Positions 139 through 10,892 of a stretch of 64,000 bases of DNA are shown in pieces. Under the pieces are notes generated by a model, which did not search any database, had not been told where the DNA came from, and saw only the letters and a program-made list of their open reading frames with translations. Numbering within the stretch: the first letter of the stretch is position 1; the number at the start of each line of letters is the position of its first letter. The DNA is from an uncultured Verrucomicrobiae bacterium (GTDB taxonomy: Bacteria > Verrucomicrobiota > Verrucomicrobiia > Limisphaerales > Palsa-1400), in contig CAVPOM010000010.1 of NCBI GenBank assembly GCA_963707025.1, positions 128,001 through 192,000 on the forward strand, written 5' to 3'. Both the position numbers and the translations under genes were made by a program.

Positions 139-376
139 TGAGGTGGACCCCATCCTTTAGACCACGGAGCGCATGAAATAAGCGCGACTTTTGCCGATTG
201 CTGTCATTACTAATTGTAGTTGACTACTGTTCATTCCGTGTTTCAAACCCCTTTCGAAAAGAGAGAACGAGCGATGCGGAGCACTGCCCGTCCTCCCTCT
301 CCGTTTTCTTAGGGTTCTCAACTCTACCGCCGCAGGCGGTCTGATTTCAAGCCTTTTCCTGCCGCCTGCCTCTCTG

Positions 377-1231
377 TCAAGTGCTGCGATCGCTCCTGCC
401 TCTGGCAGGTTGCATCGCTTCCCATTTGGCCGGTTGGGCTCCATGCGTGCCGGGATCAAAATACGCGTCCGCCGGCGTCGCATAGCCCAACGCCTGGTGC
501 GGTCGTTCCCGGTTGTAGCCGTCAAACCACCGGCCCAGTCCGCGCCCTGCCGCCAACCCGTCGCCATAGTCTTGCAAATAAATGTCCTCATACTTGGCGC
601 TCCGCCACAGCCGCTCGATAAACCGGTTGTCCATCCAGCGACCCCGTCCGTCCATGCTCACGTCCACCCCCGCCGATTCCACCGCATCAATAAACATCGG
701 GGAGGTGAACTGCGATCCCTGGTCGGTATTGGAAATCAACGGCGCCTGACGCCCCGCCCGCAACGCCGCCTCCCAAGCGTCCACACAAAAGTCCGCCTCC
801 AACGTGTTGCTCAAGCGCCATCCCAGCACGTAACGACTCCACCAATCCATCACCGCCACCAAATACATAAACCCAGTTGCCATAGGCACATACGTAATGT
901 CCGAACACCAAACCTGATCCGGTCCCGTCACTGCCAAATTGCGTAACAGATACGGATAAATCTGGTGCCCCATCTCCCGCAGACTCGTCTTGGGCTTGGC
1001 GTAAATCGCCTCGATCCCCATCAACCGCAGCAGCCGCACCACCCGTTTGCGATTGATGGTCAAACCCTCCCGGCGCAACAGCACGGTCAGTTTGCGGCTG
1101 CCATAAACCGGGTGGTCCAAATGCATCTGGTCCAACCGCCGCATCAGCGCCAGGTTCTCCTCTGTCTCCGGACAGCACTGGTAATAATAACTGCCACGGC
1201 ACACCGCCAGCAGCTCGCACTGGCGCCGCAC
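377..1231 (-). CDS. IS3-family transposase OrfB (DDE/integrase core)
   Basis: Motifs WCSDITY, NTDQGSQF, DNRFIERLWRS, YNRERPHQALGY. Confidence 0.93.
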   Translation of the reverse strand: MRRQCELLAVCRGSYYYQCCPETEENLALMRRLDQMHLDHPVYGSRKLTVLLRREGLTINRKRVVRLLRLMGIEAIYAKPKTSLREMGHQIYPYLLRNLAVTGPDQVWCSDITYVPMATGFMYLVAVMDWWSRYVLGWRLSNTLEADFCVDAWEAALRAGRQAPLISNTDQGSQFTSPMFIDAVESAGVDVSMDGRGRWMDNRFIERLWRSAKYEDIYLQDYGDGLAAGRGLGRWFDGYNRERPHQALGYATPADAYFDPGTHGAQPAKWEAMQPARGRSDRST

Positions 1232-1263
1232 GCTGAGCTGCGGATCGGGAGCGATTAAACATG

Positions 1264-1554
1264 TTAAAGCCCCAGTTGCCTGGACTTTTTTTTAAGCCAG
1301 TCCAAGTCCACCGTCAGTTGGCCAATCTTCTCATGCAGTTGGGCAATCAACTGTTCCTGATCCTCCGTGCGGGGTTGCCCGGGCTCAAACAATTCGGGCA
1401 TGTGATCCCGAATCGTCGCCCGCCACTGCGTGACCTGCGCCGGATGCACCGCATACTCTCGCGCCAATTGCGCGACCGTCTTCAGCCCCACCAGGGCTTC
1501 GAATCCCACTTTGGCCTTGAAGGCCGCACTGTGTCTTTTCCGTTTTGCTTTCAT
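1264..1554 (-). CDS. IS3-family transposase OrfA (HTH)
   Basis: RKRHSAAFKAKV...LAREYAVHP...IGQLTVDLDWLKKK. Confidence 0.92.
   Translation of the reverse strand: MKAKRKRHSAAFKAKVGFEALVGLKTVAQLAREYAVHPAQVTQWRATIRDHMPELFEPGQPRTEDQEQLIAQLHEKIGQLTVDLDWLKKKSRQLGL
1285..1293 (-). promoter_or_regulatory. -1 programmed frameshift slippery site (A8G) fusing OrfA to OrfB
   Basis: AAAAAAAAG at the end of orfA; the -1 frame reads KVQATGALTCLIAPDPQLSVRRQ, open into orfB. Confidence 0.85.
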
Positions 1555-1632
1555 AAGTCTGCTCTTTCTTATCTACAGCAAACCGGCAAAAATCGAAACT
1601 TACCTGTGGTCTAAAAATAGGGGTCCAGCTCA

Positions 1633-3346
1633 GTGCGAAATGAATGCTAAGGTGATACCGACAAAACACCTCATTCCAAAGAATGCTTACCTGTTCGCCT
1701 TGGGTGATTGAATTTGTTGACACAAACGCAACTTTAATTCTGGTTCCTTGAATATATTCGGCAGCCTGCTGATACCATGAGCAAACGTAATCAAGGACGC
1801 CAGCAGCTTTTGAGTGCGTGAAAATTATATCCATGTCGGCCTTTTGTTCTAGGTTTTGCTCTTTCTTGCCGACAAACGGTGGATTACCGAGAACGTAGCT
1901 GCACAGTTCAGGCCGTAAAATCTCCTTCCAGTCAAGTCGGAGCGCGTTTCCAGGAACAATCGTCGGGGACTTTTTAAGGGGCAGGCGTTGATACCATTGC
2001 CCGAAGGCTTGCGAGATTTTCACGTTCATCTGGTGATCCATCAGCCAGAGTGCAACCTCGGCAATTCGCACAGGCCATTCGAGAATCTCAATGCCGTAGA
2101 ACTGGTCCACGTTGACCTTTGACAATTTGGTGATCTCCATTTCCGTTTGCCCCCCAAAAAGTTCCTTGAGCGTTTCAAGTTCAAGTTGGCGCAGTTCCCG
2201 GTAGGCGATGACGAGGAAGTTGCCGCAGCCGCAAGCCGGGTCCAGGAACCGGAGATTGCAAAGTTTGTCTTGGAATTCCTGCAAACGCGCCCGGCGCCCG
2301 GTTGACCGGTCGGCCTTACGGTTTTCAAATTCGGCGCGGAGATCGTCCAGGAACAGCGAGCGGATGACCTTAAGGATGTCTCGTTCACTCGTATAATGCG
2401 CCCCAATCTGGCGGCGGTCCTTCGGTTGCATTACAGACTGAAAGAGCGAGCCGAAAATGGCCGGGGAGATGCGCGACCAATCCTTGCGTGTGCAAGCAAG
2501 GAGCGCGTTGCGCATGTCGGCATTGAAATCAGCAAAATGAAGCTGTTCGCTAAAAAGCTCACCGTTGACGTGGGGAAAGCAGGCCAGCGTTTCATCGAGA
2601 TTTTTCTGGCGTTTCTCAGGTTCCGTGTTCAGGACATCAAAAAGCCTCGCCAATTTTTGCCCCAGGTCTGAGCCGTCCAGCGCGGTGCGATTCTCGATGA
2701 AAAGCCGGAATGATTCAGGCTCAAAAAGCTGAGTGCATTGGGCAAACAGGCAAAACAGGATGCGGACGAGGAATCGTTCAAGTTCATGGCCGCTGTAGCC
2801 GCCAGCCTTAAGCGCGTCGTGAAGGTTGCCCATGATTTCGACCGCCTCAATGTTGATCGGGTCTTGCTCGTGAAAGGTGTGCTGCTGGTAGCCAGCGATG
2901 AAGGCGAAATCGCTGATGTGGAGATAAAGTTCGGAAAGCGGAAATTCATGCGTCGCCCCGCGCTTTTCATTCGCATCCAGGTCGTGCAAGGCGATCCGCG
3001 CAAAATCAGACACGATGATATAATGGGGCAATTCAATGTCAGGGTTTTCATCAGCAAGCTCACGGATATAACCGAGCGCCTGTGTTTCGGCTTTGCTCAA
3101 ATCCTTTCCAAACGATTTATGTTCAACGAGCAGCTTGCCCGGCCAGAGGAGGTCAATGTAGCCATAATCGCCAGCCTTTTTCTTGACTGGCACTTCACAG
3201 GCGGCGACACGGCGGCGCTGGATTCCGAAGACCTGAAAGAAAGCGTTCCAAAACGTCTGTGATTCGGCGGTTTCACTTTTGACGCCCGTCCAATCTTTTG
3301 AAAAGGCAATGGCGTTGTGGCGGATTTCGTTCCAACTGATCGGCAT
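1633..3346 (-). pseudogene. MmeI-like (type IIL) fused restriction endonuclease/N6-adenine methyltransferase, interrupted by IS3
   Basis: MPISWNEIR...ESQTFW, IDLLWPGKLLVEHKS (PD-ExK nuclease), GAHYT, LDPACGCGNF, GNPPF. The ORF-track extension to 1385 is read-through into the IS. Confidence 0.9.
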
Positions 3347-3423: not shown

Positions 3424-3541
3424 CAACGGTGTCGAAACCGTTGAGAAATAGCGGGGACATTGATTTGCGACCCGTCATAGCTGGCCACCCGGCCACCGCT
3501 GCCCGCAGCGAGTTTCGACAGCTAGGACGGGTCCATTTTTT
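3424..3541 (+). ncRNA. Putative structured leader/antisense RNA with alternative pairings
   Basis: Hairpin CAACGGT-GTCGAA-ACCGTTG; TGTCGAAAC complementary to GTTTCGACA (3512-3520); stem ACCCGTCATAGCT/AGCTAGGACGGGT followed by T6. Confidence 0.45.
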
Positions 3542-3667
3542 ATGAACAGAAGAGTAATGGGCGCAACGCGGAGCCGAACGCGAAAGCGCCCGAAAAAATA
3601 AAAAGCACGGCCCGCTTGGTGATTCTTTGTCAAGACGCCAAGCGGGCCGGAGGCAAAACAGCAAGTT

Positions 3668-3741
3668 GCCAGTGTGGCGAAACGGCAAACGCAACCGCCT
3701 GTCGCGCGGTATTATTGCGGGTTCAAATCCCGCCACTGGCA
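3668..3741 (+). tRNA. Atypical tRNA or tRNA-like gene, anticodon GTC (nominally Asp), no encoded CCA
   Basis: Cloverleaf: acceptor GCCAGTG/CACTGGC plus A73; D arm GCG-AAACGGCAAA-CGC; anticodon arm ACCGC-CTGTCGC-GCGGT; T arm GCGGG-TTCAAAT-CCCGC. Confidence 0.8.
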
Positions 3742-3847
3742 CTTGAACCGTTGCGAGGCTCGCACGGAAAATGTCGAAAGTCAAAGATTTTTTGGTGTGA
3801 AAATCCACGCCCAAAAAGCAGCAGTAAAACTATTTTCAAATAATTAC

Positions 3848-3885: not shown

Positions 3886-4807
3886 ATGAAAAACATATTG
3901 GATTTCAAAACGCTGATGGAGTTCACGGATTATTTCAAGGACGAGGCGACCTGCGTGGCGCACTTCACGGCCACGCGGTTCCGCAACGGGGAGTATTGCC
4001 CGCACTGCCACACCACCAAGATTTACAAATGCGCCGGCGGCAAGCGGTATCACTGTGCCAGTTGCAAGCAGGATTTCACCATCCGCACCAAGACGGTTTT
4101 CGGGGAGTCCAAGCTGCCGCTCCGCAAGTGGTACATGGCGGTTTATCTTCTTTCCACCACGAGCAAGGGCATATCGAGTTTGCAACTGGCAAAGCACGTC
4201 GGCGTCACGCAAAAGACGGCGTGGTTTATGGACCACCGATTGCGCTCGGCAATGAAACAGGACGGCGGGCAGATTTTTGGGACGGTCGAGGCGGATGAAA
4301 CCTACGTGGGCGGGGCCGTCCGCAACATGCACAAGTGGAAGGTGGACAGGTCGAAAGTGGGGACGGGCGGGAAGGGCAAGGCGATAGTTTTCGGGATGAA
4401 GCAGAGGGGCGGTCAGGTGCGGGCCAGGCTGATAGCGAACAACGGCTCCGAGCAACTCCATCCGGCCATTCAGGCGACCGTTGCCCCCGGTTCGGGTACT
4501 TTACACGGACGAACACCGGGGCTACAATGGTTTGGAAGGTTACAGCCGGACGGTGGTGAACCACAGCGTCAGGGAGTACGTGAACGGGATGGCCCACACG
4601 AACGGGATTGAGTCGTTCTGGGCGCTGTTCAAGAGGTGCTACCACGGCGTTTATCACTGGATGAGCCGGAAGCACCTTCAAAAGTACATTGACGAAGCGG
4701 CTTACCGGCTCAATCGCCGGGGCCAGGACATGAACATGGTGTTCGGGGAAGTTGTGGAACGAACAACAGATGGCGCGAAACTGCCGTATAAGAAGCTGAT
4801 CGAATGA
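3886..4807 (+). pseudogene. IS1595-family transposase (Zn ribbon + ISXO2-like DDE), +1 frameshift at ~4495
   Basis: CPHC...CASC, TQKTAWFM, VEADETY in ORF 3886-4611; LYTDE, HTNGIESFW, HLQKYIDE in ORF 4481-4807. Removing one G from 4494-4496 joins them (PGSVLYTDEH). Confidence 0.92.
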
Positions 4808-4968
4808 GCCGACCGCAGAAAATAATGCCGCCCCTCAAAGGCACGTTCACGGAGATCGTCACCGCTGTGGCCGATGGGAAGGGCTTCAAAAAGGCGAAGC
4901 CGAAGCTCATGGCGAACGAGCGCGCCACTGCGACGACGCCGAAACCGCCGCTGAAAAAAGGAACTTGA
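4804..4968 (+). CDS. Small basic protein (54 aa) coupled to the transposase stop
   Basis: ATGA overlap; MSRPQKIMPPLKGTFTEIVTAVADGKG...KKGT*; below the ORF-track cutoff. Confidence 0.5.
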   Translation: MSRPQKIMPPLKGTFTEIVTAVADGKGFKKAKPKLMANERATATTPKPPLKKGT

Positions 4969-5001: not shown

Positions 5002-5229
5002 ATGAGCAAATTCAATCGTTCTCCAAAAGCTGACAGAACCGGCGGAATTGCCTGCAATTTGGCCCTTGGTGACATTACCATTTTAGACGTGAGGAATCAC
5101 GACTATGTGGTCATGGTTCGCAAAGGGACAGGTTCCAAGGAATGCCGAAGAACATTAGACGAGTTGAAGGCGAGGTATCAAGGCAGGAAACGGCGTTTGC
5201 CTGGCGTGGCTACGGTTGCGCCGCCTTGA
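5002..5229 (+). CDS. Hypothetical small protein
   Basis: AGGA 4 nt before ATG; 75 aa. Confidence 0.35.
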   Translation: MSKFNRSPKADRTGGIACNLALGDITILDVRNHDYVVMVRKGTGSKECRRTLDELKARYQGRKRRLPGVATVAPP

Positions 5230-5384
5230 TGTTCTCGAATACCATCCACAGAGTCCTCCTTAAAGAACTGGACTTCTTTGCCGTCAGCGGTTTGAAACGT
5301 GTATTGGCCGTTGTCGTGGACATATCCTTCGGCATTGACCGGAACTTCTTTTCCATTCTTGAGATGAACGTAAAATAATTTCAT
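5178..5384 (-). CDS. Hypothetical small protein (68 aa)
   Basis: MKLFYVHLKNGKEVPVNAEGYVHDNGQYTFQ...; protein-like composition. Confidence 0.5.
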   Translation of the reverse strand: MKLFYVHLKNGKEVPVNAEGYVHDNGQYTFQTADGKEVQFFKEDSVDGIREHQGGATVATPGKRRFLP

Positions 5385-5480
5385 AATTCGTTGCTTCCGA
5401 CGCATGGAATCGAAAGTCCGGCAGGCGCGGATGTCAAGCGTCGAAGCCGCCGTGGCGGCCATCGCGGCGGGGACGGTTCA

Positions 5481-5503
5481 CTGTAACATTATATATAAAT
5501 CCC
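5481..5503. mobile_element. Putative right end of the IS1595-family element
   Basis: CTGTAACATTATATATAAATCCC resembles AT-rich ...TATATAA.TCCC termini I associate with IS1595-family elements; no partner repeat found in the window. Confidence 0.45.
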
Positions 5504-5924
5504 TTGATTAGGCTTGATTGACCTTGTTGGAAATCGTGATGGAAATGGCCCCATTTTTGTCGTAAATTGTTCATGGAAAGGCACTTGAGACGATTTTTTG
5601 CAAAAAAGCTCATCCGTCGTCGCTTCGCAGTTGCGTGACCAGGGAGTGGTGGGCATGGTCAAGGTTGAAAACATGGTTTGACTGGGTGTGACCGGTTTGA
5701 CCGGCTGGGCGCAAATGCATCCTCCTCCGCAGGGCCTGCCGAGGACAGGAAATGCAAAATGCAAAATGGGAAGCAGGGCGGGAGCGATGAGGTTTTCATG
5801 GGTGCGGCAAATTGGGGCAGCACGGTTGCTTTGGGGACAGGATGAACGGGAGGCACAGGATTTTGAGCGTTGCAACCTGCGCGGTCCCGGCAGGGCCGGG
5901 ATTGGACATGGAACTTCTGACGCT

Positions 5925-6106: not shown

Positions 6107-6298
6107 GGAGTGATGGAGTGATGGAGTGATGGAGTGATGGAGTGATGGAGTGATGGAGTGATGGAGTGATGGAGTGATGGAGTGATGGAGTGATGGAGTG
6201 ATGGAGTGATGGAGTGATGGAGTGATGGAGTGATGGAGTGATGGAGTGATGGAGTGATGGAGTGATGGAGTGATGGAGCGATGGAGTGCTGGAGTGAT
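6107..6298 (+). repeat. Tandem octamer (GGAGTGAT) x24
   Basis: Direct count; units 22-23 vary (GGAGCGAT, GGAGTGCT). Confidence 0.97.
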
Positions 6299-6512: not shown

Positions 6513-7962
6513 CACACCCGTCTCATAAGGGGAAAAGTCTGGTGCTGACCTGTTCATTTGCAAGGGTTTAATTGGTCTTCGGGGTAAAATGAGATTTTGA
6601 TTTTTCCGAGTTTGGCTTTTGGGTGTGGTATGCGCCTGTTTGGGCGCGTGTGCTGTCCCATAGCTTTATTGGAAGCCGGGGAAATACGCCTGCTCGGGCC
6701 GCGCCAAGTGGCGAAAGCTGCCGCCTGCTGTCCCATAGCACGCCAGCAAATTGAGCAGATCATATTTCTCCCAGAGCGCCGCCCGCAAAATCGTGAACAG
6801 CCGGGTGAAGCTGTGCGCCCAGTTGGAGAGGTGACTGAGGTAGCGCAACAGCACGTAGGTCAACAGCGCCGTCCACACCTGCCAGCGCACGGCGTTGGCG
6901 TTGTGGCCCAGAAAATCCGCCAACTGCAAGGTCTGCTTGATTTGTTTGAAGAAGACTTCGATCTGCCAGCGGCAGCGGTAAAGGTCGGCCACGCTGCGCG
7001 GACTCCACTCCAGGTTGTTGGTCAGGAAGGTCATTTCCCGTTCCTCTCCATCAATCTCGACCAGCGCCACCACCCGGCGCATCAACTCCGGCGCGGGTTT
7101 GTTCTCGTTGCTCAGGACGATCACTTCGTCGCGCAAAATCTTCGGGTCTCTGGAGGCGGGCATTTTCCGCACCACCTCATAGCCCATGTTCTCCTTGGCC
7201 CGCGTCACCCAAAAGACCCCGCGCCCGTCCAAATCCCGCAAGTGGCCGAAGTCCACATAACCCTTGTCGAACAAGGCGATTTCGCCGCTCTTCAAGTCGG
7301 CGCACAGTTCCCGCGCCCGTCGGTTGTCGTGCTCGGCGGCAGTGTCCACAATGACAAAACCGGGCAAAAGATTCTGCAGATTCAACCGCATATGGGTTTT
7401 GGCGGCGGCCTTGCGCCGGCGGTGCTTGGCCCAGTCCAGGCAGTTGGCCACCAGTTCCATGGTCGTGCTATCAATCACATGGATGGGCATCTTGAAACGG
7501 AAGGCGGGGCCACGGCGCTGGCCCGCGGCAAAGCCGGGCGTCTGTGCTTTCAAATGCTCCAGGACCCGCCAGAAGAGTTGTTCGGCCATCTGGGCCGGAC
7601 GCTCCCGGTTGGCGTGGGAGAGGCCGTTGCGGCTGGGGGCGCTGGCGCCGCGCAAAGTGGACAGCGGCCCGGAATGCAATTGCAGCGAGTCGCACAGATC
7701 GTTGAGTCCGATGCAATGGGTGAGTTGCGCGTCCAGCAAACTGACCGTGTGACTCCACGGACTGAAGGTGCGCGACTTATCCAGAGCCCGGTCTCCCGCG
7801 CTATTTTGGAGACTTCATGCGCAGGAATGAGATTGCAAATCTGGCGCAAAACGTTAAACCGGGACCGTGTTGGTTTGATTTTTTTGTTTTTCATGCCTGC
7901 CTTGTGGCAGGTTCAAATGGTCAAGCCAACACTTTTTTCCAATTTCCTGTGGGATGGCTGTG
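6513..7962 (-). mobile_element. IS4-family element copy 1 (1450 bp), transposase frameshifted
   Basis: Same ends as copies 2 and 3; 9-bp duplication AAAACAAGA; 1-bp deletion in the run at ~7787-7789 splits the transposase (6666-7894). Confidence 0.93.
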
Positions 7963-8010
7963 AAAACAAGATGTAATTCACTCGGCTATTTAGCTACCCC
8001 CCAAGAATGT

Positions 8011-9135: not shown

Positions 9136-10892
9136 TCACCATGTCGTCTCTGCTGCATTTGGGTCGTCATACCACAACGTAAGATAATCGTCATACGGAT
9201 TATGTGGCCCCATCACCCAATAAAACGGGGCGCAAGGAAAATAAAAAGTCACAGCCATCCCACAGGAAATTGGAAAAGAGTGTTGGCTTGACCATTTGAA
9301 CCTGCCACAAGGCAGGCATGAAAAACAAAAAAATCAAACCAACACGGTCCCGGTTTAACGTTTTGCGCCAGATTTGCAATCTCATTCCTGCGCATGAAGT
9401 CTCCAAAATAGCGCGGGAGACCGGGGCTCTGGATAAGTCGCGCACCTTCAGTCCGTGGAGTCACACGGTCAGTTTGCTGGACGCGCAACTCACCCATTGC
9501 ATCGGACTCAACGATCTGTGCGACTCGCTGCAATTGCATTCCGGGCCGCTGTCCACTTTGCGCGGCGCCAGCGCCCCCAGCCGCAACGGCCTCTCCCACG
9601 CCAACCGGGAGCGTCCGGCCCAGATGGCCGAACAACTCTTCTGGCGGGTCCTGGAGCATTTGAAAGCACAGACGCCCGGCTTTGCCGCGGGCCAGCGCCG
9701 TGGCCCCGCCTTCCGTTTCAAGATGCCCATCCATGTGATTGATAGCACGACCATGGAACTGGTGGCCAACTGCCTGGACTGGGCCAAGCACCGCCGGCGC
9801 AAGGCCGCCGCCAAAACCCATATGCGGTTGAATCTGTAGAATCTTTTGCCCGGTTTTGTCATTGTGGACACTGCCGCCGAGCACGACAACCGACGGGCGC
9901 GGGAACTGTGCGCCGACTTGAAGAGCGGCGAAATCGCCTTGTTCGACAAGGGTTATGTGGACTTCGGCCACTTGCGGGATTTGGACGGGCGCGGGGTCTT
10001 TTGGGTGACGCGGGCCAAGGAGAACATGGGCTATGAGGTGGTGCGGAAAATGCCCGCCTCCAGAGACCCGAAGATTTTGCGCGACGAAGTGATCGTCCTG
10101 AGCAACGAGAACAAACCCGCGCCGGAGTTGATGCGCCGGGTGGTGGCGCTGGTCGAGATTGATGGAGAGGAACGGGAAATGACCTTCCTGACCAACAACC
10201 TGGAGTGGAGTCCGCGCAGCGTGGCCGACCTTTACCGCTGCCGCTGGCAGATCGAAGTCTTCTTCAAACAAATCAAGCAGACCTTGCAGTTGGCGGATTT
10301 TCTGGGCCACAACGCCAACGCCGTGCGCTGGCAGGTGTGGACGGCGCTGTTGACCTACGTGCTGTTGCGCTACCTCAGTCACCTCTCCAACTGGGCGCAC
10401 AGCTTCACCCGGCTGTTCACGATTTTGCGGGCGGCGCTCTGGGAGAAATATGATCTGCTCAATTTGCTGGCGTGCTATGGGACAGCAGGCGGCAGCTTTC
10501 GCCACTTGGCGCGGCCCGAGCAGGCGTATTTCCCCGGCTTCCAATAAAGCTATGGGACAGCACACGCGCCCAAACAGGCGCATACCAAACCCAAAAGCCA
10601 AACTCGGAAAAATCAAAATCTCATTTTACCCCGAAGACCAATTAAACCCTTGCAAATGAACAGGTCAGCACCAGACTTTTCCCCTTATGAGACGGGTGTG
10701 ATAAAAAGTCGTTCGAACACGTTCGGGGGCAAAATCAAAATAGCCGCGACCATCCAACGCATAAAAGGGACCCAAGAAAAGCAAGTAAGCGGGATAAACC
10801 AGCACAAGGAAAAGCAACCACCTTCGCACACGCCGAGCGGAACACGACGGCGTTGACAACGTCAACGGATGCTCTGTGCTGAAAACATTCAT
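9136..10892 (-). pseudogene. Small membrane protein (~98 aa) interrupted by IS4 copy 2
   Basis: Removing the IS and one duplication restores ...WLLFLVLVYPAYLLFLGPFY...RTTFY|FPCAPFYWVMGPHNPYDDYLTLWYDDPNAAETTW* in frame. Confidence 0.7.
9250..10700 (+). mobile_element. IS4-family element copy 2 (1451 bp), transposase with nonsense mutation
   Basis: 9-bp duplication ATAAAAAGT; CAG to TAG at 9837-9839 relative to copy 3. Confidence 0.94.

Follow-up and report, generated by a model that had tools for sequence, protein, structure and literature searches.

Insertion sequences of the IS1595 family include the "transporter IS" (ISNwi1-type), in which an ISXO2-like DDE transposase, inverted repeats of ~25 bp, and an 8-bp target duplication go together with variable passengers; such cargo-carrying elements are said to have been described by Siguier et al. 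in 2009. The mutA mutator tRNA is a parallel to the gene studied here and was not counted as evidence. Natural bacterial tRNAs that mistranslate are few, and their purpose is mostly obscure. The allo-tRNAs have an anticodon that mismatches their Ser or Ala identity, with GUC among the commonest, lie near toxin-antitoxin and transposon genes, and have been demonstrated to cause missense suppression; they combine an 8/4 or 9/3 fold with a Sec-like long D stem, a long arm, and G73 or U73 (PMC5389517). In the supplement to the same work (Mukai et al., 2017), sheet 2 holds 16 rows labeled "tRNA2, tRNALeu (7/5)," each from metatranscriptomes and bearing UUA, an ochre anticodon, and "tRNALeu (7/5)" genes of irregular tRNA polycistrons were proposed to be suppressors. 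The closest tested analogue, going by the main text of PMC10404621, is tRNA-ProX (ProA, ProN, and ProT) of Streptomyces and Kitasatospora, in which one tRNA body carries several foreign anticodons and mistranslates.

The gene analyzed here lies in the window, by which we mean the whole stretch of 64,000 nucleotides. By eye, it resembles the "tRNALeu (7/5)" genes of the Mukai supplement in its 7/5 Leu-type scaffold, its A73, and its non-Leu anticodon, but unlike them (UUA, long arm, polycistron) it has GUC, a short variable loop, and a place as the single tRNA of a bounded IS1595 element. It shares with the allo-tRNAs, as set out in the portions of PMC5389517 used here, an anticodon at odds with identity, and differs from them in its 7/5 fold, 3-bp D stem, short loop, and A73. 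The tRNA-ProX genes have Pro identity and a dedicated ProRSx (PMC10404621, main text), whereas the family described below has a predicted Leu identity, is transposon-borne, and showed no synthetase in its elements. Compared with an ordinary tRNA-Asp(GUC), the window gene has the same GUC, C38, and G1:C72 but is without G73, G2:C71, and CCA and has a Leu-type D arm. The element itself has the transposase, repeats, 8-bp duplication, and passengers of a transporter IS; a passenger tRNA with a mismatched anticodon did not turn up for such elements in the papers searched. This kind of gene is partly published, as the ochre version of the scaffold stands in the Mukai supplement. The short-armed GUC member in a transposon is new, and so is the observation that in clade B the anticodon reads a codon of the element's own transposase at a C-terminal site that is otherwise Leu in the family. 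A literature search, mostly confined to papers outside subscription, returned no paper with Leu-scaffold tRNAs inside IS elements or linked to a transposase codon. The word "transposase" is absent from the supplement text of PMC5389517, as is "transpos" from the main text of PMC10404621 and from the available text of a 2024 review of mistranslating tRNAs (PMC11415595).

Table 1. Features of the tRNA gene and its element, by position in the window
Feature	Positions	Strand	Basis or remark
IS3-type element inside cargo gene	139..1632	-	rve and HTH_21 matches, inverted repeat
5' part of MmeI-like type IIG restriction-modification gene (cargo)	1633..3346	-	
GC-rich hairpin immediately upstream of tRNA	3609..3648	.	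role putative
Possible 5-bp acceptor-stem extension, 3662-3666 with 3741-3745	3662..3745	+	pairing check
tRNA gene, tRNA-Leu scaffold with GTC anticodon	3668..3741	+	ARAGORN, Rfam, manual parse
IS1595-family DDE transposase gene	3886..4807	+	Pfam PF12760, PF12762
GAC codon, Asp116 (WFM-D-HR), candidate recoding site	4231..4233	+	column comparison
54-aa basic ORF overlapping transposase stop	4804..4968	+	similar in most clade relatives
94-aa ORF close to right end	5178..5462	-	
Right terminal inverted repeat (5479-5503) and target duplication TTGATTAG (5504-5511)	5479..5511	.	

ARAGORN labeled the gene tRNA-Asp(GTC) at 3668-3742, and the Rfam tRNA model matched it with 62.4 bits (E 7e-12); a family model, R1, built partly from this very gene, gave it 73.6 bits. 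No other tRNA gene occurs in the window, and none elsewhere in the element. The acceptor stem (GCCAGTG/CACTGGC, 7 bp), the D stem (GCG/CGC, 3 bp), the anticodon stem (ACCGC/GCGGT), and the 5-bp T stem are all perfectly paired. The D loop has A15, G18G19, C20, and A20a, the anticodon loop reads CTGTCGC with GTC at 3701-3703 followed by G37 and C38, the 6-nt variable loop (3711-3716) ends in U48, and the discriminator at 3741 is A73, with CCA unencoded. Thus, the locus is a genuine tRNA gene, and our parse bore out every cloverleaf feature in the original prediction (GTC, A73, G37, a 3-bp D stem, A15:U48, a short variable loop, and no CCA). The proposed lengthening of the acceptor stem by the flanks CAAGT and ACTTG fared less well: the flanks can pair, with one bulged base, but an extension of at least 5 bp occurs in just 4 of 30 family members, and we rejected it as a family feature. 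Many family members are preceded by hairpins or second tRNA-like genes. A scan for promoters and terminators gave no site for the window tRNA. In an independent soil run, a contig covered 3500-3713, including the anticodon, with three differences, one of which was located, and one gap, so that this run falls short of strict confirmation of the anticodon. Runs X1, X2, X5, and X8 had no coverage of the tRNA, the small word shares not being taken as a sign of habitat, and RNA runs X15 and X16 covered only DNA of related transposases but not the tRNA gene, although contigs cannot show absence. A 98-base, strongly folding hairpin region at 3442-3539 is single-copy in the host; runs X4 and X5 hold a 92%-identical relative from which it is missing.

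E. coli LeuRS requires A73, A15:U48, G18G19, and A20a and can dispense with the anticodon and the long arm; AspRS needs G73, G34, U35, C36, and C38 and also uses G1:C72 and G2:C71, with the determinants in the anticodon having the greatest strength in bacteria (excerpts of PMC9976931). All four E. coli Leu elements are present in the window tRNA, whereas the A35 and long variable arm typical of Leu isoacceptors are absent (U35; 6-nt loop). Among the Asp determinants, it has G34, U35, C36, C38, and G1:C72 and is missing G73 and G2:C71 (it has C2:G71). Both tRNA-Asp genes of the host have G73 and end in CCA, and the window tRNA is dissimilar to either; its closest host tRNA is tRNA-Leu(TAA), with a D arm differing at two positions. 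This comparison upholds the original view that the gene is not an ordinary tRNA-Asp but has Leu features, and a match to a host tRNA-Asp copy, which would have spoken against that view, was not found. When 401 genomes of the phylum were searched at the DNA level for the tRNA region, only short matches came up, and those that we parsed were host tRNA-Leu(TAA) genes; a phage collection gave zero matches, and a plasmid collection gave two, one of which was inspected and proved to be an ordinary tRNA-Leu(TAA). The host genome has a match to the LeuRS editing-domain family, and we predict from the determinants that host LeuRS charges the window tRNA with leucine. In phages, genes with a GTT anticodon on the same scaffold carry G73, which shows that A73 is not fixed by the fold and that the discriminator can apparently follow a true change of identity. 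Phage GTT genes with a Leu-type D arm (L196, L203, L205, L249, L252, L258, L351, and others) often have a long variable arm, G73, and mostly U1:A72, and they are apparently class II-like tRNA-Asn genes. The host also has tRNA arrays with irregular genes (G000:C2:106545-112159, C4:150761-153834, and C8:72468-81806), and its C4 array includes three short-loop tRNA-Leu genes.

The original prediction had the gene next to an IS1595 transposase. The transposase does adjoin it, but the gene is actually inside the element, an IS1595 transposon of 8339 bp that ends in inverted repeats and is flanked by an 8-bp duplication of its target. The left end lies beyond the window at G000:C10:125165, preceded by the same 8 bp (TTGATTAG) that follow the right end, and the terminal inverted repeats match at 19 of 22 bases; together with the transposase domains, these features place the element in the IS1595 family. 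The transposase is an ISXO2-like DDE enzyme with a zinc ribbon (PF12762 and PF12760), and its close relatives are labeled Verrucomicrobiota, which makes this the probable phylum of the host. One frameshift near 4494 splits the gene in this assembly; an unbroken 306-aa form (P0001) exists in the protein database, and runs X1, X4, X5, and X8 lack the additional base. The tRNA precedes the transposase by ~145 nt and shares its strand, and likewise in L453, the nearest tRNA-bearing relative, which also has GTC. The MmeI-like cargo gene is broken by two IS3-type copies, one in the window and a second at C10:125866-127359, the name IS3 being our reading of the rve and HTH_21 domains. The 94-aa ORF had no Pfam or PADLOC match.

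Several observations concern the surroundings and relatives of the element. A related IS1595 element of the same genus (L492, G684:C16, 4123-8392), with 76% transposase identity, seemingly occupies the site of the window element, since its 8-bp duplication is identical and its right flank similar; its cargo differs and is without a tRNA, which looks like site reuse or cargo exchange. Just past the right end of the window element, at 6107-6298, are ~24 copies of the 8-base unit GGAGTGAT, with shorter runs past the left end, and near-identical DDE_Tnp_1 transposase copies lie in opposite orientation at 6597-7976 and 9249-10616. The host has a second IS1595 transposase, of clade B (L462, G000:C12:16444-17373), with GCC at the C-terminal site; no family tRNA was found near it, nor in five clade-A elements of the same order.

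Searching for similar RNAs beside such transposases, as had been suggested at the outset, yielded homologs inside transposons. A match to the transposase was found at 184 loci, and three of these, in addition to the window's own, carry the same kind of gene, with anticodons TGT, TGT, and TGC. We then searched GTDB with a pattern (Leu-type D arm plus a non-A35 anticodon, with A14, A15, A20a, and U33 imposed) and fetched 120 stretches, 44 of which were tRNA-like, from an estimated total of ~1500. An IS1595 transposase lay within 5 kb of 8 of 26 tRNA-like genes versus 1 of 54 chance matches (Fisher p=0.0004), in a comparison over the 80 stretches with long flanks, a few of the 26 being false or genes of the host. 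With wider flanks, 30 family genes, from several phyla, were within ~2 kb of a transposase (21 IS1595, 5 IS1-like, and 4 DDE_Tnp_1), and in 13 of the 21 IS1595-linked loci inverted repeats and a target duplication enclose tRNA and transposase. The anticodons of the 30 correspond to Pro (9), Ala (5), stop (4), Ser (4), Thr (2), Asp (2), Gly (2), Glu (1), and Arg (1). As the pattern excluded Leu anticodons, we ran a census open to any anticodon over 351 genomes of the host's order: five of nine matches had a Leu anticodon and four another one, and a transposase was a neighbor of none of the former and of three of the latter, including the window gene.

Features that the pattern did not impose are nearly invariant, A73 occurring in 29 of 30 members and U48 in all 30; position 37 is a purine in 30/30, imposed for two rows. 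The variable arm is long in 28/30 and CCA is encoded in 8/30. The determinants that would go with the anticodons are lacking: no member has G3:U70, including the five genes with Ala anticodons, and C1:G72 is absent from all nine with Pro anticodons. The stems covary strongly, with two-sided changes in 14 of 20 pairs and 98.8% of cells paired, in 28 of the 30 rows and with a parser that demanded pairing. Where the gene lies with respect to the transposase, and on which strand, differs among members, and in clade A only 4 of 16 elements examined carry the tRNA, two of them with TGT, and 12 are without it. In a tree of 191 rows, tRNA-bearing transposases cluster (8 changes versus 17.5 when shuffled). 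Nearest-neighbor transposases have the same anticodon in 5 of 12 pairs (1.6 when shuffled, p=0.009) and the same amino acid in 8 of 12, whereas the stems of their tRNAs differ at 10 to 19 of 34 positions in the seven pairs compared, about as in random pairs. Anticodons shared despite diverged stems indicate that the foreign anticodon is kept rather than drifting, although related elements are not independent samples and the p-values here overstate. The Mukai "tRNALeu (7/5)" sequences closely resemble family members L217, L364, and L456, and the 16 ochre rows in that supplement look like members of the transposon-borne family.

The genes next to family members include RM, RmrA, SoFic, HEC-09, and PemK matches. 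An association with defense cargo was rejected as not specific, since methyltransferases are also carried by the tRNA-less relatives L492 and L113 (PADLOC alone served as the control). In some loci a second irregular tRNA lies just upstream of the Leu-type one (L386:5048-5119, L479:6781-6854, and L356:4839-4929; also L359, L454, and L455), and L386, an element of 1.6 kb, carries little cargo beyond two tRNAs.

The anticodons have a counterpart in the transposases of clade B (IS1595). At a C-terminal site, KRLxYxx[L], Leu is found in 104 of 115 tRNA-less transposases with the site placed. In 15 of 25 clade-B elements, the codon at this site is one that the element's own anticodon reads (anticodon/codon TGG/CCA ten times and AGG/CCT, TGC/GCG, TTA/TAA, CCT/AGG, and CCC/GGG); this tally covers placeable elements, leaves out L457 and L532, and excludes the window element, L453, L012, L120, and L137, which have Leu at the site and with which the match is 15/30. 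Counted as distinct combinations, 6 of 13 match versus 1.8 when shuffled (p=0.003), at a site picked after looking at the data; in the prospective part, the rows placed later, 5 of 12 match, four of them as TGG/CCA. Of the 101 loci in the later round, three were dropped, two as duplicates and one as an unpublished genome, and L576 turned out to duplicate L339. The mismatches include three TGC elements with TCG and three stop-anticodon elements with CCA. The tRNA-less clade-B relatives (n=62, four of which later proved tRNA-bearing) have Thr (23), Pro (12), Ser (10), Ala (6), or Leu (3) at the site, with CCA in only three and AGG and GGG in none; as Leu is found in just 3 of 62, a requirement for Leu there is not established. 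No convincing matching column was found in the five IS1-like or four DDE_Tnp_1 transposases, and the elements' own genes gave no sign of avoiding the codon that the tRNA reads, some rows of that comparison having used a non-transposase ORF. The clade-B link between anticodon and codon looks real to us and would argue for decoding in vivo by clade-B tRNAs. The three stop-anticodon elements with CCA (L364, L456, and L584) each have a second tRNA-like gene (L364:5160-5232, L456:7225-7293, and L584:1359-1428) without a clear D arm and with CTGG in a loop, which might read CCA. In a tRNA-less clade-B viral set (L498-L575), the site codon nearly always ends in T (ACT, CCT, TCT, GCT, ATT, or GTT).

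We propose that the gene, as cargo of its transposon, would be transcribed, receive CCA, be leucylated by host LeuRS, and insert leucine at a fraction of Asp codons. The likely job of the family would be to recode one codon of the element's own transposase: the transposase gene would bear a non-Leu codon where Leu works best, and a fully active enzyme would arise only if the cargo tRNA outcompeted that of the host, a dependence that would hold transposition in check and bind tRNA and element together. That the window gene is a Leu-inserting missense decoder tied to its own transposase is the reading that we prefer, at somewhat less than an even chance. The close ochre relatives in the metatranscriptomes of the PMC5389517 supplement were counted in its favor; its 6-nt variable loop, C38, lack of CCA, and broken RM gene were counted against it in the window copy. 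The C-terminal site of the window transposase is still Leu, and the candidate target lies elsewhere. Among the 12 Asp residues of this transposase, only Asp116 falls in a column that is mostly Leu in tRNA-less rows (102 of 173, the commonest residue family-wide), and both GTC elements have Asp116, encoded by GAC in the window and by GAT in its sister L453. On the other hand, Asp116 is found in 100 of 121 clade-A sequences, although just 4 of 16 clade-A elements have the tRNA and two of those four read Thr, and the suggestion that it is the target of the window tRNA is weak. As a general recoding site, residue 116 was rejected, as it is variable and agrees with the anticodon in just 2 of 18 elements, those with GTC. 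The further claim that the anticodon of a Leu-charged tRNA serves as a private decoding key, co-evolving with one transposase codon (Pro, Ala, Arg, Gly, Asp, or stop for Leu), with the window as the Asp version acting at residue 116 on a class I scaffold, is possible but doubtful.

Other readings bear on the same evidence. A Leu-charged tRNA might act as a mild mistranslator across the proteome, priming stress responses or hindering protein synthesis by phages, the transposase match being a tolerated side effect. The variable layout, the three transposase families that carry the tRNA, its optional presence in clade A, and the defense-type neighbors would all suit such a role, as would the reports that tRNA-ProX genes are toxic in E. 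coli (PMC10404621, main text) and, in the part of 10.1101/650846 used here, that mistranslation primes SOS. It would not, however, predict exact matches to the rare AGG, GGG, and TAA at one transposase site, the elements' own genes do not avoid the target codon, and methyltransferases in tRNA-less relatives make the cargo context unspecific; we consider it unlikely. A decaying family remnant, inactivated when it lost its variable arm and carried by an element itself breaking down, would explain why this copy has 6 nt where 28 of 30 members have 13 to 31, why its cargo gene carries two IS3-type insertions, and why a relative ~92% identical in the flanks (runs X4 and X5) holds 117 different letters where the window has 107. 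The original argument that intact stems speak against simple decay stands insofar as every stem is paired, but the short loop is a derived loss within a long-arm family and leaves room for decay. Even so, short loops also occur in member L479 and phage member L204, phage tRNA-Leu genes with 5-nt variable loops exist, E. coli LeuRS can do without the arm (PMC9976931, excerpts), and the transposase frameshift is absent from four other runs; a dead copy seems quite unlikely.

Aspartate or dual identity would make the gene a spare tRNA-Asp, resistant, for example, to an anticodon nuclease. The anticodon, C38, and G1:C72 are Asp determinants, and the short loop makes the tRNA class I like tRNA-Asp; yet G73 and G2:C71 are missing, all three GTC members seen retain A73, and the host already owns two tRNA-Asp genes, which leaves little probability for this identity. 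Least probable, with a slight chance at best, is an RNA that does not decode, serving as a decoy for anticodon nucleases or as a structural or processing signal of the element. Its place upstream of the transposase, repeated in L453, would fit a signal, and some allo-tRNAs are inactive in translation (PMC5389517, portions used here). In contrast, 4 of 30 members carry stop anticodons, for which the host has no tRNA that could be imitated, the Leu determinants are kept, the layout varies, the flank extension is not conserved, and most clade-A elements do without the gene. Thus, of the three functions that the original prediction had offered, miscoding fits best, and the decoy and the structural RNA fit worse, given the stop anticodons of relatives, the retained A73, and the varying position and strand.

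If the window gene and its relatives decode for their own transposases, the anticodon-codon match would give mistranslation a concrete purpose, the control of transposition by recoding, with an effect comparable to programmed frameshifting. The transposon would bring its own decoding key, and active transposase would be made only through deliberate mistranslation. The family, which spans many phyla and is mislabeled by anticodon-based annotation, would offer a natural set of missense and nonsense suppressors that insert Leu and would illustrate how ambiguity in the genetic code can be sown by mobile DNA. Amber and ochre anticodons on a Leu-type scaffold also occur in the viral contigs L192, L193, L204, and L246, with no transposase nearby.
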